Virus genome (UHGV): UHGV-0034768
From: a virus
DNA: 39,178 bases
Strand: one strand, 5' to 3'
Position numbers and translations under genes: made by a program. This document shows positions 2,198 to 38,720 of the stretch, piece by piece (position 1 is the first letter of the stretch; each line of letters opens with the position of its first letter). Under the pieces are notes generated by a model. That model was not told the origin of the DNA. It did no database searches and saw only the letters and a program-made list of their open reading frames with translations.

Positions 2198-2260
2198 GTC
2201 TAGACTCAAGGTCATTCACAGAGAGTGGCCTTTATGATTAGACTAAACGGAGGATTAACC

Positions 2261-4432
2261 ATGTTTGACCTTAAGAGTATCTGGGGTTCTGACATCGAGA
2301 CCAACGGTCTCCTTGATACAGTATCCCAGTTTCACTGTGGGGTCCTGATTAACGCCGAGTCGAATGAGACCCTTAAGTATGGGGTAGCTCCGATGGTCGG
2401 TATCGTCGGTGGCTTCAAAGAGTATGTTCATAAAGTGGAAGAGATTGCCGCATCTCCTGATGGCATGCTGGTATTCCACAACGGTATCAACTATGACGTA
2501 CCGGCTATCGACAAGCTGAAGCGTCTGTACTTTGGGAAACGTTTTAACTTCCCGAAACACAAGATGATTGATACCTTGGTGCTGGGCCGCTTGATGTATC
2601 CAAACATTAAGTTCTCAGACATGGGTGCTGTGAAAGCTGGTCGTCTGCCACCTCAGATGATGGGACGCCAGTCTCTTGAGGCTTGGGGCTATCGTCTTGG
2701 TGAGATGAAAGGTGAGTACAAGCACGATTACGTTGCCAAGTGCAAGGCTGAAGGTATCGAATATAAGGCTGGGGACGAATGGTTGTTCCCGTCTCAGGAG
2801 ATGCTGGACTATAACGTACAAGACGTTGTGGTCACACTGGCGTTGTTCAAGAAGTTCCTGACTGACAAGTATTACTTCCAGTCTGAACAGTTCGCTTTCG
2901 ACCAGATTTATGCTTTGCGTCTGGAACATGATGCTGCGTGGACCTGTGCAAAGATGGAACGTAACGGCTATCCGATGAACACCGAGATGGTCGAAGGCTT
3001 ATATCGTGAACTCACCGTCAAACGTGCAGAGTTGCTGGACAAGTTGCGTTCAACTTTCGGTAGCTGGTATGCACCGAAGGGAGGCAAGGAGTTCTTCAAG
3101 CACCCACGTACAGGCAAGGACCTTCCGAAGTATCCGCGAGTCGTGTATCCTAAGGTCGGTGGCATCTTTAAGAAGCCGAAGAACAAAGCTCAACGCTTAG
3201 GTCTTGAACCTTGTGAACGCGATACGCGAGACACGATGGAAGGAGCACCATTCACGCCAATAACTTACGTTGAGTTTAATCCGGGAAGCGGAGACCACTT
3301 AGCGAAAGTCCTGATGGAGCGTGGCTGGGAACCAGTGGACTTCACTGACACCGGGAAGCCTGTAGTCGATGACGAGACGTTAGAACACGTTAAGTTGCCA
3401 GACGCAGAGGCTCAGGCGTGCGTAGAGCTGGTCCGTGAGTATCTGGTAGTCCAGAAGCGCATAGGTCAAGCGGCTGAAGGTAAGAACGCATGGTTGAAAC
3501 TTGTAGGTCCAGACGGACGTATGCACGGTGCAATCAACCCATGCGGTGCAGTAACAGGACGTGCTACCCATAGTACACCAAACATGGCTCAGGTCCCGGC
3601 TAACGGTGCCCCATACGGTGAGACTTGCCGTGGTGCTTTCGGTGCAGCGTGGAACAAGAAGGACGGTAAGCCAGACCCTTGGATTCAAGTTGGTGTGGAT
3701 GCCTCAGGTCTTGAGCTTCGTTGTCTTGGGAACAGAGCGGCTCCGTTTGATGGTGGTGCCTATGCGAAGACTGTGGTCGAAGGTGATATACACTGGGCCA
3801 ATGCTGTCAACGCGGGTTTAGCACCTAACGTCCCACGCGATAAGTCGAACCACGACCATGAGGCTTTCCGTAACAACGCTAAGACGTTCATCTATGCGTT
3901 CCTGTATGGTGCAGGGGCCGCTAAGATTGGACTGATAGTCGGCGGTGGTAAGAAGGAAGGTTCGGCCTTGATGAAGAAATTCATTGAGGGTACACCAGCT
4001 ATCAAGGACCTGCGAGAGGCTGTGCAGAACACGCTCATCTCAGAGTCGAAGTGGGTAGATGGTGAGAACATCGTGAAATGGAAACGTCGCTGGCTGAAAG
4101 GTCTGGATGGTCGCCGCATTCACATCCGGTCGCCACACTCAGCACTGAACGCCTTACTTCAAGGTGATGGTGCGGTAGTCTGTAAGCACTGGATTGTTGA
4201 GACTGAGCGTATGCTCGAAGAGGCCGGGTATGTCCACGGCTGGGAAGGAGACTTTGCGTACATGGCATGGGTCCACGACGAATTGCAGATTGCAGCTCGG
4301 AACATGGAGATTGCCGAAGATATTCGCAGGATTGCTCAACTTGCTATGCGGAAGGTGGGTGAGTTCTATAACTTTAAATGTGTCCTTGATACCGAAGGTA
4401 AGATTGGACCAACGTGGAAGGAGTGTCACTAA
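2261..4432 (+). CDS. gp5: DNA polymerase (T7 gp5-like, family A, with 3'-5' exonuclease and thioredoxin-binding insert)
   Basis: Start set at MFDLKSIWGSDIETNGLL (aligns with T7 MIVSDIEANALL) with GGAGGA RBS; conserved blocks FHNGxxYDVPA, GAVTGRATH, KTFIYGFLYGAG, MAWVHDE; C-terminus ...GPTWKECH like T7. Confidence 0.95.
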   Translation: MFDLKSIWGSDIETNGLLDTVSQFHCGVLINAESNETLKYGVAPMVGIVGGFKEYVHKVEEIAASPDGMLVFHNGINYDVPAIDKLKRLYFGKRFNFPKHKMIDTLVLGRLMYPNIKFSDMGAVKAGRLPPQMMGRQSLEAWGYRLGEMKGEYKHDYVAKCKAEGIEYKAGDEWLFPSQEMLDYNVQDVVVTLALFKKFLTDKYYFQSEQFAFDQIYALRLEHDAAWTCAKMERNGYPMNTEMVEGLYRELTVKRAELLDKLRSTFGSWYAPKGGKEFFKHPRTGKDLPKYPRVVYPKVGGIFKKPKNKAQRLGLEPCERDTRDTMEGAPFTPITYVEFNPGSGDHLAKVLMERGWEPVDFTDTGKPVVDDETLEHVKLPDAEAQACVELVREYLVVQKRIGQAAEGKNAWLKLVGPDGRMHGAINPCGAVTGRATHSTPNMAQVPANGAPYGETCRGAFGAAWNKKDGKPDPWIQVGVDASGLELRCLGNRAAPFDGGAYAKTVVEGDIHWANAVNAGLAPNVPRDKSNHDHEAFRNNAKTFIYAFLYGAGAAKIGLIVGGGKKEGSALMKKFIEGTPAIKDLREAVQNTLISESKWVDGENIVKWKRRWLKGLDGRRIHIRSPHSALNALLQGDGAVVCKHWIVETERMLEEAGYVHGWEGDFAYMAWVHDELQIAARNMEIAEDIRRIAQLAMRKVGEFYNFKCVLDTEGKIGPTWKECH

Positions 4433-24940: not shown

Positions 24941-25405
24941 ATGCTCGAATTTTTAAAGAGAGCGGCTCCGTGGTTACTTGCAGCAGTGATGTTTGCTGGT
25001 GGCTACCACACCGCTAACAATAAGTGGGAGGCTAAGGTCAATGCAGAATACACCTCGAATCTTAAGGCATCGGAAGATACAAGGCTTGCTGTCCAAGCTG
25101 AAGTCAACAAAGTGTCCAAGCGGTTTCAGGACGAAATGTCCTCGCTGGAAGGCAGCACTGATAGGATTATTGCTGACCTTCAGTCTGACAATAAGCGGCT
25201 GCGCATCCGAGTCAAACCTACGAGTGGAACCACGCAAAGTGACGGTCGATGCGTCATTGATGGTTACGCCGAACTTGACGAACGAGATGCTAAACGTCTT
25301 ATCGCCATCGGATTAAAAGGAGACTCGTGGATTAAGGCCCTTCAAGATACTGTTCGTAAACTTCAACAAGACCGGGGTAGCTATGGGAATTATAATAACA
25401 ACTGA
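24941..25405 (+). CDS. gp18.5: i-spanin Rz (T7 gp18.5-like)
   Basis: 154 aa; N-terminal TM segment; matches T7 gp18.5 (MLEFL, LEGSTDRII.DL.SDNKRLR.RVK, RDAKR, ALQDT.R.LQ). Confidence 0.9.
   Translation: MLEFLKRAAPWLLAAVMFAGGYHTANNKWEAKVNAEYTSNLKASEDTRLAVQAEVNKVSKRFQDEMSSLEGSTDRIIADLQSDNKRLRIRVKPTSGTTQSDGRCVIDGYAELDERDAKRLIAIGLKGDSWIKALQDTVRKLQQDRGSYGNYNNN
25041..25316 (+). CDS. gp18.7: o-spanin Rz1 (T7 gp18.7-like), embedded in the +1 frame of Rz
   Basis: Embedded ORF with basic N-region, hydrophobic stretch ALIGLLLTFSLTISG and lipobox Cys (LTISGC); ATG at 25041 is 100 nt into Rz, as in T7; start not certain. Confidence 0.6.
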   Translation: MQNTPRILRHRKIQGLLSKLKSTKCPSGFRTKCPRWKAALIGLLLTFSLTISGCASESNLRVEPRKVTVDASLMVTPNLTNEMLNVLSPSD

Positions 25406-26168
25406 GACAGACGTGGTGTGGCACTACACTACAGGAGACCCTAGTGGTCGAAAGAACGCATCCGGGCATCTCCAAGAAGGTACTATAGAAGTTGTGGTTC
25501 CAGAGAATGCGCTGACAGCACGCCTGTACGTGACTGGAGGTCTGACGGTAAGCAAAGACTTCACGTCTACTTTCGGCTGGCCTATAACTGTAGGTGGAGT
25601 GACCGTGGAGAGACTCTGGGTCGATTCCGATGGCGAGACAGTCCTGAGTGTCTCATCTACCACTGGTAACGGTGTAGTAAAGATTGAGTACGACTGGGAG
25701 AAGACCAGACCTATTGACCACGCTGAATACACACTAGACGTCCGTAACTGGACAGGAACTAAGGAGTGTCCCGCTGGTGTGTTCACTGAGATTGTTAGTC
25801 TTCCGTGGGTAAAAGTCATAGATGCGAACGTAGTGTCAATCACAGGGTCTACCCTCAAGTTCCCGGCTATGGATGGTCTAAGCACATTGGTCTTCGCTGT
25901 GAGACTTACTGGTACGTATCCTACCCAATCCGAGCACACATGGTCTGTCATTATTCGAAGACCTACAGGTCAGGTACTATCAGTAGTACAGGAGGCTGAC
26001 AACAAGGTATCGTTCTCCACTCGTGAGACTACTATTCACAGCTACATTGCAGACATAGACGACCCGTTCGTGACCTCTGGTGTGGTGATTGGTGTGGAGA
26101 ATACCTCATCTCAGGCCCTGACTTTAACAGCCATAACGTTGCGTATAGAGCGCATATTTAACGTATAA
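25383..26168 (+). CDS. hypothetical 261-aa beta-rich protein inserted between the lysis cassette and terminase large subunit
   Basis: Long ORF with T/V/S/G-rich composition; overlaps the Rz end by 23 nt; no counterpart in T7 where gene 19 follows 18.5 directly; function unknown. Confidence 0.7.
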   Translation: MGIIITTETDVVWHYTTGDPSGRKNASGHLQEGTIEVVVPENALTARLYVTGGLTVSKDFTSTFGWPITVGGVTVERLWVDSDGETVLSVSSTTGNGVVKIEYDWEKTRPIDHAEYTLDVRNWTGTKECPAGVFTEIVSLPWVKVIDANVVSITGSTLKFPAMDGLSTLVFAVRLTGTYPTQSEHTWSVIIRRPTGQVLSVVQEADNKVSFSTRETTIHSYIADIDDPFVTSGVVIGVENTSSQALTLTAITLRIERIFNV

Positions 26169-27944: not shown

Positions 27945-28038
27945 CTGAATGAATAACTATAGGTGAAAGCTGCATGAATACGCAGTTAGTACCCTATAGT
28001 TACTACCAGTATAACCTACTGTTTTACAAGGAGTTTGG

Positions 28039-28061
28039 ACTTAACTATCACTATAGGGAAG
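28039..28061 (+). promoter_or_regulatory. phage RNAP promoter (phiOR position), ACTTAACTATCACTATAGGGAAG
   Basis: Consensus match; +1 G at 28056; downstream of terminase near the genome right end, as T7 phiOR. Confidence 0.8.
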
Positions 28062-28639: not shown

Positions 28640-28835
28640 TCTCACAGTTCAAGAACTTCAAGTCTCCCCATAGGCCCTCTTTCAGTCCAGACCAAAGGCC
28701 CTCCCCAGTCTATCATAAGGTTGGACCTATGGTCAAGACGTTAGGTCGACGATAGGTCTAGGCTATGGCTGGAGGTCAGACGATAGGTAGGGACTATTGG
28801 TTGTCTCCGAGTCTCTATCTGTATACCATAGGTCT
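28640..28835. repeat. candidate direct terminal repeat region (single collapsed copy); probable physical left end near 28640
   Basis: TCTCACAGT...CTCCCCATAGG at 28640 and ...TGTCTCCGAGTCTCTATCTGTATACCATAGGTCTC resemble the T7 left-end terminal repeat (TCTCACAGTGTACGG...CCCCCATAGGGGG ... TGTCTCTCTGTGTCCCTATCTGTTACAGTCTCC). Confidence 0.4.
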
Positions 28836-28839
28836 CAAC

Positions 28840-28926
28840 AACCTACAGTCCTACAGCCTACAGTCTAACAACCTACAGTCACCGACCATCGGTAAAGCCA
28901 TTACCTACAGTCAAAAGACCTACAGT
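28840..28926. repeat. array of about six CCTACAGT short direct repeats
   Basis: Copies at 28842, 28850, 28857, 28872, 28904, 28919; counterpart of the T7 CCTAAAG array between the terminal repeat and promoter A1. Confidence 0.7.
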
Positions 28927-29039
28927 TAATAGACACAAAGCTATAGACTTAAGGTCTAAGACATGTTAGTCAAAGACTATATCCTCTTAGTCACTATGGG
29001 GCCGACGATAGCTTAATCGATATTATTTAAGATTACCTA

Positions 29040-29068
29040 TTGACTATAGGTCTAGACTATGGCCTAAT
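29040..29068 (+). promoter_or_regulatory. candidate host sigma70 early promoter (A1-like)
   Basis: TTGACT at 29040-29045, then a 17-nt spacer and a weak -10 (CCTAAT); collinear with T7 A1 (TTGACTTAAAGTCTAACCTATAGGATACT). Confidence 0.4.
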
Positions 29069-29210: not shown

Positions 29211-29398
29211 GTACCACATCGAAACAACAGTGATGACCAACACTGAAATGGTCTACCTGAAGTCCTCTGACTGAAGGGAATGCTCTTTAACAATCTGGAT
29301 AAAACTCTTAATGTGCGCCGATAGCGACTAACTACAGGGCCTTTGAGTATACATCTGAAGGCCCTGACTGATAGTCACTAACTTAAAGGATGGACACT

Positions 29399-29644
29399 AT
29401 GAAACACTTAAGCACAATCACTAATCGCAATGAAATATTCGTGAACACTAAAGGTTATGCGTGGATTCAGCTTAAAGAGCTGACAGGAGCGCGTCACCGT
29501 GTGGTAGTGCGCAAGGTCTCAAGCAAGCCGTTCAGCAACTACAGCGTAGATACTGTGCGTATAGACAACGAGACCTACCTGATAGACTCGCAGATAACCG
29601 TGCGTCCTACAGCGGGCGTCCCAGCTCCTTATTTCGCTAACTGA
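29399..29644 (+). CDS. hypothetical early protein (first gene after the early promoters, upstream of ocr)
   Basis: 82-aa ORF (second ATG chosen, AAAGGA 7 nt upstream); preceded by a structured leader; no recognisable domain. Confidence 0.6.
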   Translation: MKHLSTITNRNEIFVNTKGYAWIQLKELTGARHRVVVRKVSSKPFSNYSVDTVRIDNETYLIDSQITVRPTAGVPAPYFAN

Positions 29645-29732
29645 GAGTGATTAACTACAGGTCGTTAGACTCATAGCGGCCTGACTGATAGCCACTAACA
29701 TACGCACTAACAACTTTTGAGAGGATATAACT

Positions 29733-30077
29733 ATGGAACGTAACGCTAACGCATACTATGAGCTGCTGGCTGCAACCGTTGAAGCATTTAACGAGCGTAT
29801 TCAGTATGACGAAATAGCTGAAGGCGATGAGTACCACGATGCACTGCATGAGGTCGTAGACGGTCAGGTCCCGCATTATTACCACGAGATTTTCACGGTG
29901 ATGGCTGCTGATGGTATAGACCACGAGTTTGAGGACTCTGGGCTGATGCCTGAGACCAAGGACGTAACGCGTATACTGCAAGCTCGCATCTATGAGGCAT
30001 TGTATAACGACGTGTCTGATAGCTCGGATGTGGTCTGGTTTGAGGCTGAAGAGGAAGACGAAGAGGACTGCGAGTGA
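29733..30077 (+). CDS. ocr: Ocr, DNA-mimic anti-restriction protein (T7 gp0.3-like)
   Basis: 114 aa, very acidic; blocks [49 protein letters not shown] match T7 Ocr ([41 protein letters not shown]). Confidence 0.95.
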
Positions 30078-30226
30078 TAGTAACTTATGGTCTCTGCAAG
30101 CACCACGTCACCAACGCCAGGATTTTGGTCAAGACCGGGCGGTTAAACCACGATGCGGCTATGCGTCACCTGAAAGCGGTCTACGAGGACCGCAAGCGCA
30201 CCCACGACAGCTTACACGCTGAGTGA
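30074..30226 (+). CDS. possible gp0.4-like small protein (T7 gp0.4 inhibits FtsZ)
   Basis: 50-codon ORF not in the supplied track, GTG start overlapping the ocr stop; product ..TYGL....[13 protein letters not shown]....LHAE resembles recalled T7 gp0.4 (..QYGL....AMAQLKELYENNK....ESAE). Confidence 0.45.
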
Positions 30227-30292
30227 TAGACGAGAGGTCATCGACTGATAGGTGGCCTCAAAGATTATCACTTACATTGATAGGAGTTAACT

Positions 30293-30382
30293 ATGAACAT
30301 CGGTTACTGGGTATGCCTGTCTCCGGTCATCTTTCTGATAGCTTGGGGCCTTCTGGACGCAATCAAGCGAGGGTCATTCTAA
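30293..30382 (+). CDS. 29-aa hydrophobic peptide (early, gene 0.5-like position)
   Basis: MNIGYWVCLSPVIFLIAWGLLDAIKRGSF with TAGGAG RBS 7 nt upstream; short, so uncertain. Confidence 0.35.
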   Translation: MNIGYWVCLSPVIFLIAWGLLDAIKRGSF

Positions 30383-30576
30383 TGAGCTGGATACTTCTGG
30401 TCATTGGCTACGGGTTAATACTCGCAGTCATCATGAAAGACATCAACAAAGCGCGTACAGTCTACAACTTCAACTATGTGCGTCTGGGTCGCTGGACTGT
30501 ACGTCAACCTAACGGGCGATTCATGCGCAACTTAGCGAACGTCTGGGATATAGCAACTATCGGGAGTAAACTGTAA
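30382..30576 (+). CDS. 64-aa early membrane protein
   Basis: MSWILLVIGYGLILAVIM... single TM segment; TAATG overlap with the upstream peptide; the track ORF 30223-30576 is likely a 5' over-extension. Confidence 0.5.
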   Translation: MSWILLVIGYGLILAVIMKDINKARTVYNFNYVRLGRWTVRQPNGRFMRNLANVWDIATIGSKL

Positions 30577-30902
30577 TGAACAAGTCATACGGGATTAATC
30601 TGGTACACTCTATGGACGCAGAAATGAACATGTTAAGCCTACTGGCTACCGGGTATCGTCACGGAACGTCAAGTCACACCGCACGTCAACAGCAGGAGCG
30701 GGACCGTGTACTACAGGCACGACTCCAGGCAGAGGGCCATAAGGCTGAGCTGATGTGGCTGGCGTATGGTGGACGACCTATCACCGACGATGGTAAACTT
30801 CTGGTCTCAGGCTGGAAGGCGATAGACCAACGGTCAACCATCAAGCACACGACTCACGGTGACTTCAGTCATCTACACGCTAACCCATTGATATGCAAGT
30901 GA
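30576..30902 (+). CDS. hypothetical early protein (108 aa) at the position of the absent gp0.7 kinase
   Basis: ORF with ATG overlapping the upstream stop; no kinase motifs; immediately upstream of the RNAP gene. Confidence 0.6.
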   Translation: MNKSYGINLVHSMDAEMNMLSLLATGYRHGTSSHTARQQQERDRVLQARLQAEGHKAELMWLAYGGRPITDDGKLLVSGWKAIDQRSTIKHTTHGDFSHLHANPLICK

Positions 30903-30907
30903 TTCTG

Positions 30908-30930
30908 ACTTAACTATCACTATAGGACTC
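30908..30930 (+). promoter_or_regulatory. phage RNAP promoter directly upstream of the RNAP gene, ACTTAACTATCACTATAGGACTC
   Basis: Consensus match; +1 G at 30925, 74 nt upstream of the RNAP start codon. Confidence 0.75.
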
Positions 30931-30998
30931 AAGGTCTAAGACTCCAAGTGAAAGACCAAAGAGACTTAAGTGAAAGACTAATAACAAGGACTTTAAGT

Positions 30999-33680
30999 AT
31001 GAGCGTCATCTCCATTGACAAACACGACTTCTCTGATGTGTCTAACGCTATTGAGCCGTTTAACCTGCTGGCTGACCACTACGGGCAAGACCTTGCAGTC
31101 AAGCAACTTCAGCTTGAGCATGAGGCATACACTGAAGGCGAGCGACGTTTCATCAAGAACCTTGAGCGTCAGACAGAGCGCGGTGAACTGGCAGACAATC
31201 AGGTCGCCAAGCCTTTGATGCAGACTCTGGTCCCTAAGATTGCGCAAGCCGTCAAGGAGTGGCATGACGGTCCAGACGGGAAGATGTCAACATCTCGTCC
31301 TAGCGTAGCGTTCACCATGTTGAGCACTGAAGAGAAGGCCGTCAAGGACCGCTCTCTGCGCATCTCCTGTGAGTCTGCTGCGGTTATCATACTGAAGGTC
31401 ATCCTCTCCAAGCTGGTAAAGCCTGAAGGGATACCGATTACACCGATGGCCTCAGCGATAGGTCGCACACTTGAGGACGAAATCCGCTTCGGTCGCATCC
31501 GTGACAAGGAGAAGGAGCACTTCAAGAAGGCGATAGCTGAGAACCTGAACAAGCGAGCCGGGGCATCCTACAAGAAAGCCTACATGCAAGCTGTTGAGAC
31601 CTCCATGCTTGAGCAAGGTCAACTGGAAGATGCGTGGGGAACTTGGAGTCCGACCGAGGCGGTCCATGTTGGCATCAAGATGCTTGAGATTGTCATCCAG
31701 TCCACTCAACTGGTAGAGCTTAAGCGTTATGGTGCTGGCAATGCAGCGGCTGATGTTGAGATGGTCCACCTATCAGACTTCTGGGTCAAGAAGATGGCCC
31801 AACGTGGCTTCAGCCTTGCGGGTATCGCTCCAGTCTATCAACCTTGCGTAGTTCCACCTAAGCCGTGGACGGGTGTCGTAGGCGGTGGGTATTGGGCCAA
31901 AGGACGCAGACCGTTGCCACTGATTCGCTTAGGGTCTAAGTCTGCGGTAGCACGTTATGAGGACGTGTACATGCCTGAAGTCTATGACGCTGTGAACATC
32001 ATCCAGAATACACCTTGGAAAGTTAACAAGAAGGTGTTGGACGTGGTGAACATGGTCGAGAAGCTGAACAACACGCCTATTGATGATATCCCTCAGATGG
32101 AGCCACTGAAGCCTGAAGACTATGCGGGTGAGACTGAAGAGGAACTCAAGGCATGGAAGAAGGCTGCTGCTGGTATCTACCGCCGAGAGAAGGCCCGGCA
32201 GTCACGTAGATTGTCACTGAGCTTTATCGTTAACCAGGCTAACAAGTTCTCTCAGTTCAAGGCCATCTGGTTCCCGTATAACATGGACTGGCGCGGTCGC
32301 GTATACGCTGTGCCGATGTTCAACCCTCAGGGTAACGACATGCAAAAGGGTCTCCTTACTCTGGCAGTCGGTAAGCCTATTGGTGCTGATGGTTTCAAAT
32401 GGCTGAAGGTCCACGGTGCAAACTGTGCGGGTATTGATAAAGTCACCTTCGAGGAGCGCATCAAGTGGGTGGAAGACAACCACGACAACATCATGACTAC
32501 TGCTAAGGCACCGATGGACAGCATTGAGTGGTGGGGTAAGTTAGACTCTCCGTTCTGCTTCCTCGCGTTCTGCTTCGAGTATGCTGGCGTAATGCACCAC
32601 GGCCTATCTTACTCTTGCTCGCTACCGATAGCTTTCGATGGGTCCTGCTCTGGGATTCAGCACTTCAGCGCGATGCTTCGAGATCACATCGGTGGACATG
32701 CAGTAAACTTGACGCCATCCGGTAAGGTCCAAGACATCTACCGCATCGTATCCGACCGCATTGAGGAGGAACTTAAAGTCCTGCTGGTTAACGGTACGGA
32801 CAACGAGATGGTAACTCACGAGGATAAGAAAACTGGTGAGATTACCGAGCGTCTCAAGCTGGGGACACGAGAGCTGTCCCGTCAGTGGCTGACCTACGGT
32901 ATGTCACGCAAGGTTACTAAGCGTTCGGTTATGACTCTGGCCTACGGGTCGAAAGAGTACGGCTTCGCAGACCAAGTTTACGAGGACATCGTGATGCCAG
33001 CGATTGACTCAGGGTCTGGTGCCATGTTCACCGAGCCAAGCCAAGCGTCTCGTTTCATGGCTAAGATGATTTGGGAAGCTGTGAGTGTGACCGTAGTCGC
33101 TGCGGTTGACGCAATGAAGTGGCTTCAAGGTGCTGCTAAGCTGCTGGCTGCTGAAGTAAAGGACAAGAAGACAGGCGAAATACTGAAGCCTTGCCTTCCG
33201 GTACACTGGGTAACACCTGATGGTTTCCCGGTCTGGCAGGAATACCGCAAGAAGGATACAACCCGTCTGAACCTGATGTTCTTAGGGTCGTTCAACCTTC
33301 AGCCTACCGTCAACAGGGGTACGAAGAAAGAGCTGGACAAGCACAAGCAGGAGTCAGGCATTAGCCCGAACTTCGTCCACTCACAAGATGGTAGCCACCT
33401 CCGCAAGACTGTAGTCCACACGCACCGCAAGTATGGCGTAATGTCCTTCGCAGTGATTCACGATAGCTTCGGGACCATCCCGGCTGACGCTGAGTATCTG
33501 TTCCGTGGGGTCCGTGAGACTATGGTAGAGACCTACCGCGACAATGATGTGCTGCTTGACTTCTACGAGCAGTTCGAATACCAGCTTCACGAGAGCCAGC
33601 GCGACAAGTTGCCTGAGCTTCCGAAGAAAGGTAAACTGAACATAGAAGACATCTTGTCTTCAGACTTTGCATTCGCTTAA
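30999..33680 (+). CDS. gp1: DNA-directed RNA polymerase, single-subunit (T7 gp1-like)
   Basis: Start at MSVISIDKHDFSD (T7 MNTINIAKNDFSD) with AAGGA RBS; extensive identity to T7 RNAP including PWTGVVGGGYWA, FPYNMDWRGRVYAV, NCSLP.AFDGSCSGIQHFSAMLRD, HDSFGT, and C-terminal FAFA. Confidence 0.97.
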   Translation: MSVISIDKHDFSDVSNAIEPFNLLADHYGQDLAVKQLQLEHEAYTEGERRFIKNLERQTERGELADNQVAKPLMQTLVPKIAQAVKEWHDGPDGKMSTSRPSVAFTMLSTEEKAVKDRSLRISCESAAVIILKVILSKLVKPEGIPITPMASAIGRTLEDEIRFGRIRDKEKEHFKKAIAENLNKRAGASYKKAYMQAVETSMLEQGQLEDAWGTWSPTEAVHVGIKMLEIVIQSTQLVELKRYGAGNAAADVEMVHLSDFWVKKMAQRGFSLAGIAPVYQPCVVPPKPWTGVVGGGYWAKGRRPLPLIRLGSKSAVARYEDVYMPEVYDAVNIIQNTPWKVNKKVLDVVNMVEKLNNTPIDDIPQMEPLKPEDYAGETEEELKAWKKAAAGIYRREKARQSRRLSLSFIVNQANKFSQFKAIWFPYNMDWRGRVYAVPMFNPQGNDMQKGLLTLAVGKPIGADGFKWLKVHGANCAGIDKVTFEERIKWVEDNHDNIMTTAKAPMDSIEWWGKLDSPFCFLAFCFEYAGVMHHGLSYSCSLPIAFDGSCSGIQHFSAMLRDHIGGHAVNLTPSGKVQDIYRIVSDRIEEELKVLLVNGTDNEMVTHEDKKTGEITERLKLGTRELSRQWLTYGMSRKVTKRSVMTLAYGSKEYGFADQVYEDIVMPAIDSGSGAMFTEPSQASRFMAKMIWEAVSVTVVAAVDAMKWLQGAAKLLAAEVKDKKTGEILKPCLPVHWVTPDGFPVWQEYRKKDTTRLNLMFLGSFNLQPTVNRGTKKELDKHKQESGISPNFVHSQDGSHLRKTVVHTHRKYGVMSFAVIHDSFGTIPADAEYLFRGVRETMVETYRDNDVLLDFYEQFEYQLHESQRDKLPELPKKGKLNIEDILSSDFAFA

Positions 33681-36191: not shown

Positions 36192-36446
36192 ATGTTTAAG
36201 AACTTAATGTTCAACCGTTATTCCAGTACCTTCCACCTGTCCAACAACCCGTTCGCTTGCATTAAGCGCAACGAGAAGCTGGGATACTTCGGGAAGGCCG
36301 TTAAGCTGTCACCTACAGTCTTCGCTCTGATTACTCCGGGAAAAGCTGAAGAGGCTCGCCAGAAGCGTGAGACCAACGTACCTGTGGTCTACACTAAGTG
36401 GCCTCGCGTTCGTCTGTTCGTCGAGTTCATGAAGGAGGTGTTCTGA
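36192..36446 (+). CDS. gp1.6: gp1.6-like protein
   Basis: 84 aa; C-terminal ...WPRVRLFVEFMKEVF resembles T7 gp1.6 ...FPFVRLLLKRIKEVF. Confidence 0.75.
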   Translation: MFKNLMFNRYSSTFHLSNNPFACIKRNEKLGYFGKAVKLSPTVFALITPGKAEEARQKRETNVPVVYTKWPRVRLFVEFMKEVF

Positions 36447-36784
36447 TGGGATATGTATGTAACTGTGAGCGTGACTATGACACAAGTGATGGACATGCAC
36501 TTGATTGTGCTATTCACAGTGGCAACACCAAAGACAATATGATCGAAGGTGTCACTAAGCCATCACATTACATGCTGTTTGATGACATTGAGGCTATCGA
36601 AGTGATTGCCCGTTCGATGACCAATGAGCAGTTCAAAGGGTATTGCTTAGGTAACGTCCTGAAGTATCGACTCCGAGCTGGTAAGAAATCCGAGCTGGCT
36701 ACTATGGAGAAGGACCTGAACAAAGCAGCCTTCTATCAGGAGCTGTTCAACCTACATAAAGGTAAGTGCTATGCTGCCGAGTGA
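36446..36784 (+). CDS. gp1.7: gp1.7-like nucleotide kinase, short form (112 aa)
   Basis: IEGVTKPSHYMLFDDIEAIEVIARSMT..EQFKGYC.GN.LKYRLRAGKKSELA matches the C-terminal half of T7 gp1.7; start at ATG 36446 with GAAGGAGGTG RBS. Confidence 0.85.
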   Translation: MGYVCNCERDYDTSDGHALDCAIHSGNTKDNMIEGVTKPSHYMLFDDIEAIEVIARSMTNEQFKGYCLGNVLKYRLRAGKKSELATMEKDLNKAAFYQELFNLHKGKCYAAE

Positions 36785-36862
36785 GTGGTGCCGGGAGATG
36801 TACGAGAAGACTCTCAACCCGGACTACATTACGTTATACAACCAATGGAAGGAGCGCGGTTT

Positions 36863-37021
36863 ATGACTGAGGTTGAGAAGAAATACATCGTGGAGCTTGA
36901 GGGTCGCGTTCAGTCCTTCGAGGTTCCGGTGTACGCAAAGTCTCTTGAAGAGGCTACCCTGAAGTCCCAAGAGTATGAGGACGCTGGGTTCGTGGTCGGA
37001 CGGATTCGTCCTGAGACCTAA
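36863..37021 (+). CDS. gp2: gp2-like inhibitor of host RNA polymerase
   Basis: 52 aa; [15 protein letters not shown]....YEDAGF.VGRIRP resembles T7 gp2 HSFEVPIYAETLDEA...YVPAGFEVTRVRP; RBS GGAAGGAG. Confidence 0.8.
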
Positions 37022-37777: not shown

Positions 37778-38229
37778 TGGCCCAATGGTCTGCAAAACGG
37801 GGGCACTCTGTGGGTGCCTACCGCTCTGGACTTGAAGCCAAGAACCAGCAGTGGCTGGAACAGAACGGCGTCAAAGCGGAGTACGAAAGCCATTATATCA
37901 ACTATGTGATTCCGGCTTCCGACCACAAGTACACACCAGACTTTATACTTCCTAACGGTATCATCGTGGAGACCAAAGGTATCTTCGATAGTGATGACCG
38001 TAAGAAGCACCTTCTGGTACGAGAACAGCACCCAGAGTTAGACATCCGGTTCGTGTTCTCAAGTTCCCGCTCCAAGTTATACAAAGGGTCTCCGACCACG
38101 TATGGCTCATGGTGCGAAAAGAACGGCTTTAAGTTTGCAGATAAGTTTATCCCGGTTGAGTGGCTGAAAGAGGTGACTATACGTCTGCCTTCAGGCATAC
38201 TCATTCCCAAGAAGAAAGGAGTTAAGTGA
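37777..38229 (+). CDS. gp3: endonuclease I, Holliday junction resolvase (T7 gp3-like)
   Basis: 150 aa; YVIPAS.H.YTPDF.LPNGI.VETKG....DDRKKHLL.REQHPELDIR.VFSSSR.KLYKGSPT.YG matches T7 endonuclease I. Confidence 0.95.
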   Translation: MAQWSAKRGHSVGAYRSGLEAKNQQWLEQNGVKAEYESHYINYVIPASDHKYTPDFILPNGIIVETKGIFDSDDRKKHLLVREQHPELDIRFVFSSSRSKLYKGSPTTYGSWCEKNGFKFADKFIPVEWLKEVTIRLPSGILIPKKKGVK

Positions 38230-38720
38230 TGAGCAAGAAGTTTAAACTGTTAGTAGATGCGTATGGCTGGCCTAGTGGGACTATAGTTACCAAGTGTGAG
38301 AAGGACCCAGCACCAGATTCAAGAATGACCCTAGTTGAGTGTCAGACTCCTGGAGCATACAAACATGGGTCTAACGGCTACAATACTCAGCCTGAGGGTA
38401 TGTGGGGAGCATGGGTCCTTAATCACAAACTTCAGGAAATCAAGCAAGAAGAGAAACTCACTGGTGCACAGACCACTCAGGTCCTACCAGCTTCTAGCGT
38501 ACCTCCTGTGACAGTGAAACGCGAAGTCCTGACAATCGACAAGATTGGTGTAGGCCAGACGTTCATCGTCCATGGAAAGCCTGAAGAAGTTTACGTGAAG
38601 ATTAGCAACTCACACGTCTTCAACCATAAGCTGCTTCAGATGCACACTACGGACGCACAACGCTTCACCCAGCACCTGAATCTAGTGGTCGTAGAATTGG
38701 TGGTGTACAATGGTAAGTAA
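38226..38720 (+). CDS. hypothetical protein (164 aa) inserted between endonuclease I and lysozyme
   Basis: ORF overlapping both neighbours by a few nt (operon-embedded); no counterpart in T7 where genes 3 and 3.5 abut; function unknown. Confidence 0.65.
   Translation: MMSKKFKLLVDAYGWPSGTIVTKCEKDPAPDSRMTLVECQTPGAYKHGSNGYNTQPEGMWGAWVLNHKLQEIKQEEKLTGAQTTQVLPASSVPPVTVKREVLTIDKIGVGQTFIVHGKPEEVYVKISNSHVFNHKLLQMHTTDAQRFTQHLNLVVVELVVYNGK

Follow-up and report, generated by a model that had tools for sequence, protein, structure and literature searches.

Does a T7-like phage that lacks the gene 0.7 protein kinase put other early genes in its place? The question is raised by UHGV-0034768, a virus genome of 39,178 nucleotides (nt; this whole stretch is called the window), in which the interval between the anti-restriction gene ocr (gene 0.3) and the RNA polymerase gene (gene 1) holds only small open reading frames (ORFs). 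The original prediction set this interval against T7, which encodes gp0.4 to gp0.6 and gp0.7 ahead of its RNA polymerase gene, a layout that agrees with the T7 record, and argued that small membrane ORFs and a protein of 108 amino acids (aa) replace the kinase. We find instead that the window is very probably an ordinary Kayfunavirus from which an optional kinase cassette is absent, and that the genes for the 29-, 64- and 108-aa proteins are conserved neighbors of that cassette.

The window reads as a complete, circularly permuted genome of a Kayfunavirus (K1F-like, T7 group). Its first 25 kb are approximately 94% identical, over 91 to 93% of their length, to many Kayfunavirus genomes; Escherichia phage Peacock is 93% identical across the early region, and K1F, Vec13, LS2 and others cover that region to 86 to 100%. 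The kinase-bearing phage phi1_146013 is among the nearest whole-genome relatives. All long ORFs lie on the + strand and belong to the T7 gene set, including primase-helicase, DNA polymerase, portal, capsid, tail tube, internal core proteins, terminase, RNA polymerase, ligase and single-stranded DNA-binding protein. We define the Kayfunavirus early architecture as an ocr or S-adenosyl-L-methionine hydrolase (SAMase) gene, a phrog_5058 gene, a hairpin, a phrog_2385 gene, a phrog_7066 gene and gene 1, co-oriented and with about 90% or more DNA identity to members of the genus, and this architecture is found in the window. The early operon, ocr through gene 1, would be transcribed by the RNA polymerase of the host and runs in the order ocr, a gp0.4-like 50-aa gene, a hairpin, the 29-, 64- and 108-aa genes, a phage-type promoter and gene 1. 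The features to which the text refers are as follows.

29733-30077, + strand: ocr (gp0.3), DNA-mimic anti-restriction protein, the left landmark (Pfam PF08684 at 1.7e-31; phrog_2568 at 7e-54)
30074-30226, + strand: 50-aa gp0.4-like gene (K1F gp0.35; phrog_5058 at 8e-25)
30218-30223, + strand: GCTGAG, the microhomology at which the empty kinase site is joined; two blastn segments overlap here
30220-30274, + strand: predicted RNase III-type hairpin (from fold and covariation), at about the position of T7 R0.5
30293-30382, + strand: gene for a 29-aa hydrophobic micro-protein (MNIGYWVCLSPVIFLIAWGLLDAIKRGSF), at the position of T7 gene 0.5 (from Shine-Dalgarno sequence and overlap)
30382-30576, + strand: 64-aa single-pass membrane protein (K1F gp0.37, annotated '0.6'; phrog_2385 at 3e-28)
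30576-30902, + strand: 108-aa basic protein of the K1F gp0.38 family (phrog_7066 at 2.8e-44)
30910-30926, + strand: phage RNA polymerase-type promoter TTAACTATCACTATAGG, a consensus copy
30999-33680, + strand: gene 1, single-subunit RNA polymerase, 893 aa, the right landmark
36785-37021, + strand: gp2-type inhibitor of host RNA polymerase (phrog_1307 'RNA polymerase inhibitor' at 6.5e-24)

The 29-, 64- and 108-aa ORFs are chained by TAATG stop/start overlaps, and an AGGAG Shine-Dalgarno sequence precedes the first of them. These three ORFs and the RNA polymerase ATG at 30999 lie where they had been predicted, and the description of the interval as one of small ORFs holds, but its size does not: 921 bp separate ocr from gene 1, rather than 770 bp, and the 50-aa gp0.4-like gene, the hairpin at 30220-30274 and the promoter at 30910-30926 had been left out. 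Of the two landmarks, ocr is 54% identical to T7 gp0.3, and gene 1 is annotated as RNA polymerase in all relatives, with orthologues that carry PF14700 and PF00940.

A gp0.7-type kinase was sought both in the interval and in the rest of the window. The largest ORF in 30078-30998 that fits the chain encodes 108 aa, and no ORF of kinase size (about 240 to 370 aa) was present between gene 0.3 and gene 1. All + strand ORFs of at least 130 aa, the RNA polymerase itself excepted, were scanned with Pfam and/or PHROGs; every one was assigned otherwise or matched an unrelated family of unknown function, and none matched phrog_2828, phrog_15752 or phrog_18305, the gp0.7 kinase families. As a positive control, T7 gp0.7 matched these three families, at 1.6e-169. 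Pfam is unfit as a kinase detector, as T7 gp0.7 itself has no Pfam match, and the test rests on PHROGs and on tblastn, in which T7 gp0.7 against all six frames of the whole window gave a best E of 4.7. Every - strand ORF of at least 130 aa was nested within + strand genes, and the only 'kinase' match in the genome was to a gp1.7-type nucleotide kinase (36398-36784), which is not a protein kinase. As predicted, no gp0.7-type kinase lies between ocr and gene 1; one encoded elsewhere in the 39-kb genome, which would have told against the prediction, was looked for and not found. We conclude that, as far as gene content can tell, this phage does not phosphorylate host proteins by means of such a kinase.

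Within the genus, the kinase is polymorphic. A 243- to 244-aa protein is carried by Dev2, GW1 (Cronobacter), CHRF_20041 (Salmonella), vB_VIPECLMC06 (Enterobacter) and others, and GW1, CHRF_20041 and vB_VIPECLMC06 are classified as Kayfunavirus. The GW1 protein matches phrog_15752 at 4.5e-114, as well as the kinase half of phrog_2828. The Kayfunavirus protein keeps the DPV motif and, because it stops approximately 20 residues past that motif, is a kinase without the shut-off domain. With 30 to 37% identity to T7 gp0.7, 54% identity to CR8 and a PHROG of its own, it is an old, distinct branch and no recent import from T7/T3-type phages.

The kinase-bearing relatives show where the small genes belong. 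Directly 3′ of the kinase in vB_VIPECLMC06, Dev2, Pisces, GW1 and CHRF_20041 lie the 64-aa and 108-aa (or 83-aa) genes, and the 29-aa ORF is likewise 3′ of the kinase in vB_VIPECLMC06, Dev2 and Pisces. Like the window, kinase-bearing Kayfunaviruses have an ocr or SAMase gene, the gp0.4-like gene, a hairpin (B), the 64-aa gene, the 108-aa (or 83-aa) gene, the promoter and gene 1; the shared early genes are orthologous at 84 to 97% identity, and the 29-aa ORF is shared with VIPECLMC06 and Dev2. Unlike the window, they carry in addition a 41-aa ORF, another hairpin (A) and a 244-aa kinase-only gene (936 bp in VIPECLMC06 relative to the window), to which GW1 adds a 115-aa ORF in the extra segment. 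The notion that small ORFs had replaced the kinase is thus not borne out, as the 29-, 64- and 108-aa genes co-occur with it in close relatives. We conclude that they are neighbors of the kinase and not substitutes for it, because kinase-bearing relatives carry them too.

A replacement in function, in which the small membrane ORFs and the 108-aa protein took over the role of gp0.7 by an alternative shut-off or anti-defence route, we consider highly unlikely. The 108-aa gene does lie immediately upstream of gene 1, the place that gene 0.7 takes in T7, and its product is basic (isoelectric point [pI] 9.3) and early by position; moreover, as the kinases of Kayfunaviruses have no shut-off domain, another protein might in principle provide that function. 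The same genes, however, are found at 84 to 97% identity in relatives that have the kinase. When 19 sequences of the 108-aa family were compared, profile against profile (hhalign), with a set of eight shut-off domains from gp0.7 proteins, the probability was 0.2% (E = 0.26), and the T7 shut-off domain matched phrog_2828 only and never phrog_7066. With neither an hhalign nor a PHROG link, we rejected the idea of the 108-aa protein as a shut-off domain detached from gp0.7. The Ser/Thr/Tyr content of the 64- and 108-aa proteins was also equal in kinase-plus GW1 and the window. Depletion of these residues as a signature of living with a kinase was dropped on the same comparison, which showed no difference between kinase-plus and kinase-minus orthologues in a sample far too small.

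The site from which the cassette is missing can be placed to the base. By blastn against vB_VIPECLMC06 (locus L019), window positions 29643-30223 correspond to 756-1311 of the locus and positions 30218-31400 correspond to 2248-3434, the latter at 90% identity. The two blocks overlap by six bases, GCTGAG, at 30218-30223, and what is absent between them is exactly 936 bp, in which vB_VIPECLMC06 has the gene for the 244-aa kinase, the 41-aa ORF and a single hairpin of RNase III type (A). Because these 936 bp are absent, the gp0.4-like gene of the window ends on the stop sequence of the kinase gene: it ends ...HAE* on GCT GAG TGA TAG, which in the relatives makes up the 3′ end of the kinase gene, stop codon included. 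The same GCTGAG-TGATAG junction is present in K1F. Peacock and Vec13 have the other kinase-less arrangement, in which the 41-aa ORF is kept and is followed by a single hairpin, and the existence of two configurations argues for more than one loss event. Where members of the genus have the kinase, it lies between two hairpin units that have diverged from each other, and upstream of the block of 29-, 64- and 108-aa genes. Most likely, the cassette and the 41-aa ORF would have been lost by illegitimate or homologous recombination during exchange between phages.

The hairpins that border the cassette belong to a family. Three homologous units occur in the window, at 29316-29392 (84-aa gene), 29640-29735 (ocr) and 30219-30295 (29-aa gene). 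The hairpin at 30220-30274 has a minimum free energy of -26.2 kcal/mol (z = -4.1) and an AGGAG Shine-Dalgarno sequence next to it. An alignment of ten copies (the three of the window, which precede the 84-aa gene, ocr and the 29-aa gene; those that flank the kinase in GW1 and CHRF_20041; and the single ones of Peacock, Vec13 and K1F) gave a consensus of 18 pairs, of which 7 show compensatory changes. The hairpin core AGGTCATC...GGTGGCCT matches T7 sequence 3113-3140, upstream of gene 1, which we take to be the place of the RNase III site R1 on the map of Dunn and Studier. The copies thus combine what defines T7-group RNase III sites here, namely, a hairpin of approximately 55 nt with an internal loop, a position between early genes, covariation and likeness to a mapped T7 site, and they are probably processing sites of the early polycistronic mRNA. 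Moreover, each unit starts with stop codons in two frames and finishes with a Shine-Dalgarno sequence, and because of these ends the units may also be portable joints between early cassettes. The spacer between the 108-aa gene and gene 1, folded as one hairpin, was not significant (z = -0.9). We propose that the repeated hairpin units would have two roles, as sites at which mRNA is processed and as joints at which early accessory genes recombine.

The junctions and hairpins could also be read in the opposite direction, with the kinase-less state ancestral and the cassette, together with a second hairpin copy, inserted in phages of the Dev2/GW1/VIPECLMC06 type. Roughly 80% of sequenced relatives are without the kinase, as such a history would have it, and the hairpin copies that flank the kinase have diverged to 77% identity, as expected if the cassette brought its own copy. 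We regard an insertion as doubtful, though it deserves to be taken seriously. It has to reconcile two kinase-less junctions, one at GCTGAG inside the gp0.4-like gene (window and K1F) and the other a single hairpin after the 41-aa ORF (Peacock and Vec13), and a gp0.4-like gene that in the window ends on sequence serving elsewhere as the kinase 3′ end and stop codon. Furthermore, the kinase, at 30 to 37% identity to T7 gp0.7 and 54% to CR8 and in its own PHROG, is an old, distinct branch and not a recent T7/T3-type import. Repeated loss is the more economical history because there are two different junctions and because the kinase is such a branch.

Several points weigh against the reading of an ordinary Kayfunavirus that lost an optional cassette. 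The direction of the event, loss here or gain in the relatives, is drawn from the junctions and not from a dated tree. Roughly one in five relatives bears the kinase, a share that compares two separate record counts (44 records with the kinase at at least 80% identity and 224 with the 108-aa gene), which include duplicate GenBank/RefSeq entries and were not explicitly intersected. RNase III cleavage, use of the promoter and expression of the small ORFs are predictions, and PHROG, Pfam, sequence and fold searches found no homologue with a tested function for the 29-, 64- or 108-aa protein. Absence of the optional cassette is nevertheless the reading that we keep in what follows.

The 108-aa protein was originally described as lacking kinase motifs, and the profile search proposed at the time agrees: the protein belongs to the phrog_7066 family and matches no kinase PHROG. 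This is a narrow family, with 144 clusters at 90% identity and, among 1.8 billion, 14 representatives at 50%; wherever the genomic context of a member was inspected, it proved to be a T7-like phage genome or a contig of approximately 40 kb. In the protein, which has a pI of 9.3, a conserved core of 83 aa is preceded by an N-terminal extension of 24 aa that varies. Two distant members keep the order of a 64/65-aa gene, the gp0.38-family gene and gene 1, and the 64-aa/108-aa pair stays together directly upstream of gene 1 even in members that are 32 to 50% identical. AlphaFold2 (AF2) modelling with a shallow alignment gave a predicted local distance difference test (pLDDT) score of 49.8 and was unusable; with a diverse alignment that included distant representatives, the mean pLDDT was 69.8, rising to about 90 for residues 40-85, and the model, usable for residues 33-88 only, has an all-helical core (helices 33-52, 56-63 and 71-88). 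A C-terminal motif, HTTxGDFSHLHxNPLIxK, is highly conserved and poorly modelled. Fold searches with the model returned no informative match, and literature searches for functions of gp0.38 or of Kayfunavirus early genes found nothing.

A phmmer search of the 108-aa protein against PDB sequences returned C-terminal domains of ISG15 only (E = 0.09 to 0.4, residues 18-81), which would give it a beta-grasp fold of the ubiquitin-like (ISG15) type; it might then serve, for example, as a decoy for bacterial defence systems that are ubiquitin-like. The chance of this is close to nil. Such E values are at the level of noise, and the first strand of the ISG15 alignment falls in the N-terminal extension, which the 83- to 86-aa members of the family do not have. 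The AF2 core is all-helical at a pLDDT of about 90, beta-grasp folds were not among the matches in the fold searches, and the protein has no C-terminal Gly-Gly. We conclude that the family alignment, the AF2 model and the fold searches rule out an ISG15 or ubiquitin-like identity as far as prediction allows.

A gene annotated 'endonuclease VII' lies in CHRF_20041 (locus L006, 3476-3898) between the 64-aa gene and the gp0.38-family gene, which there has the short 83-aa form. This arrangement suggests that the variable N terminus of the family is another recombination joint. We also see a small chance that the translationally coupled 64-aa and 108-aa proteins form an early effector module for kinase-independent host shut-off or anti-defence. 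Such a module could supply a DNA- or transcription-directed function missing from the Kayfunavirus kinases, which have no shut-off domain, and the motif HTTxGDFSHLHxNPLIxK could be its docking element.

The 50-aa protein connects the interval to T7 in another way. It matches phrog_5058 and cross-matches phrog_25044 and phrog_7202 (T7 gp0.4 family), and T7 gp0.4 matches the same three. An orthologue with 67% identity, in locus L016, carries PF26807 (Phage_T7_GP04), and the Y-G-L and M..LK..Y...K columns are conserved in the alignment with gp0.4. Pairwise BLASTP with default statistics gave no match between the 50-aa protein and T7 gp0.4, and a look-up of the exact 50-aa sequence found it not on record. 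By family membership, the 50-aa protein is a remote homologue of T7 gp0.4, the FtsZ inhibitor, which places a gp0.4 homologue in phages said to have none. Infection by K1F is reported to mislocalise FtsZ although K1F 'lacks' gene 0.4 by BLAST (Dhanoa et al., PMC9372555), and the gp0.4-like K1F gp0.35 would be the obvious candidate for this effect.

The 29-aa peptide is hydrophobic and has no PHROG or Pfam match. Its ORF is intact in seven phages at 83 to 97% nucleotide identity, with six synonymous changes and one nonsynonymous change between Dev2 and the window, and is annotated in Peacock as CPT_Peacock_008; because it is intact in seven phages with mainly synonymous differences, we consider it a real gene. 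The 64-aa protein has N-terminal hydrophobic residues (2-18), a very basic C-terminal part and a pI of 11.0, and tblastn matched it in 307 phage records, among which kinase-bearing Klebsiella phages have the 64-aa gene upstream of a full-length kinase. Our guess, made from timing, topology and analogy with T7 gp0.4-0.6, is that the 29-, 64- and 108-aa genes may encode conserved, translationally coupled, nonessential early host-takeover proteins that work at or near the inner membrane and independently of the kinase.

Between the 108-aa gene and gene 1, the promoter at 30910-30926, 73 nt upstream of the ATG of gene 1, is a perfect copy of the consensus. The window has 11 copies of this consensus, every one on the + strand, where chance would give 0.07. 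A promoter at this place is conserved in all nine of the nine relatives examined, in the same form in K1F, Peacock, Vec13, PE31/JSS1 and vB_VIPECLMC06 and in a variant form of their own in GW1, CHRF_20041, L015 and L016. It is unannotated in the GenBank records inspected, and no phage promoter is annotated between gene 0.7 and gene 1 in the T7 record. Use of this promoter would mean that the polymerase transcribes the gene that encodes it. A 46-nt direct repeat with 78% identity (28012-28057 and 30881-30926) comprises the promoter and 29 nt upstream, its second copy taking in the last codons of the 108-aa gene (NPLICK*). Because of this repeat, the gene 1 promoter and the right-end promoter may share an origin.

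Database labels deserve care where the kinase is concerned. The approximately 110-aa ocr gene of Vec13 (MH400309; locus L003, 1580-1912) is mislabelled 'protein kinase', ocr of LM33_P1 (LT594300) is seemingly labelled 'Phage protein kinase', judging by the hit table, and a truncated kinase region in Salmonella phage ST37 (OQ860975) is labelled 'S-adenosyl-L-methionine hydrolase'. Such labels could falsely imply a kinase in K1F-type phages. The record KX689784.2 ('Escherichia phage JSS1', locus L017) is the kinase-less Kayfunavirus PE31. The published JSS1_004 is an anti-defence kinase with a kinase domain and a shut-off domain and 54% similarity to T7 gp0.7; a link to it through the KX689784 record was dropped, as record and published description seem mismatched, possibly through a shared name.

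Elsewhere in the genome, a 261-aa ORF (25383-26168, + strand) between an Rz-like gene and the large terminase gene is the sole non-core ORF of more than 200 aa; it has no Pfam match and, in residues 113-260, matches only a PHROG of unknown function, phrog_17779. A 164-aa ORF (38226-38720, + strand) between the gp3-type endonuclease and amidase genes matches phrog_16385 and phrog_15211, both of unknown function. The noncoding left-end region upstream of the early genes contains families of short direct repeats, 23-mers containing CCTACAGT at 28827-28926 and 22-mers of GACGATAGGTC at 28737-29063.

The absence of the kinase had originally been taken to mean that host shut-off by phosphorylation is missing or done differently. 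The phosphorylation route is indeed absent; a different way of shut-off is unneeded, as the gp2-type inhibitor of host RNA polymerase and a gp5.5/5.7-type pair are both kept in the window. T7 can do without its kinase under standard conditions, and the protein is now seen chiefly as a broad, hyper-promiscuous anti-defence enzyme (PMC13645617). What is lost is best described as an optional anti-defence layer rather than as shut-off: the phage would be without broad phosphorylation-based anti-defence and host modulation and would retain ocr, the gp0.4 homologue, gp2 and gp5.5/5.7-type functions. As a finding, one more T7 relative without gene 0.7 matters little. The genus does offer natural pairs of nearly isogenic phages, of which one has and the other lacks a kinase-only version that has no shut-off domain, and cassette boundaries known to the base are convenient for engineering and for host-range comparisons.

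Compared with T7 (genes 0.3, 0.4, 0.5, 0.6A/B, 0.7 and 1), the window likewise has ocr, a member of the gp0.4 family, a small hydrophobic ORF after an RNase III-type site, homologous hairpins that separate early genes and, later in the genome, gp2. Unlike T7, it has no gp0.7 kinase or shut-off protein; its 64- and 108-aa proteins have no BLAST match to T7 early proteins, T7 gp0.6A belonging to a different PHROG from the 64-aa protein, and upstream of gene 1 it has a phage-type promoter where the T7 record has an annotated Escherichia coli promoter (C). The closer parallel is K1F (AM084414 and DQ111067; genes 0.3, 0.35, 0.36, 0.37, 0.38 and 1), which is of the same genus and has the same early gene order, hairpin, promoter and GCTGAG-TGATAG junction, with neither kinase nor 41-aa ORF. 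K1F differs in that its gp0.36, which takes the place of the 29-aa ORF of the window, is a hydrophobic protein of 55 aa with two segments, in a short 86-aa form of gp0.38 and in an ocr that is annotated as longer. We conclude, from the GenBank annotations of K1F, that the kinase-less layout is already known from that phage, deposited in 2005.

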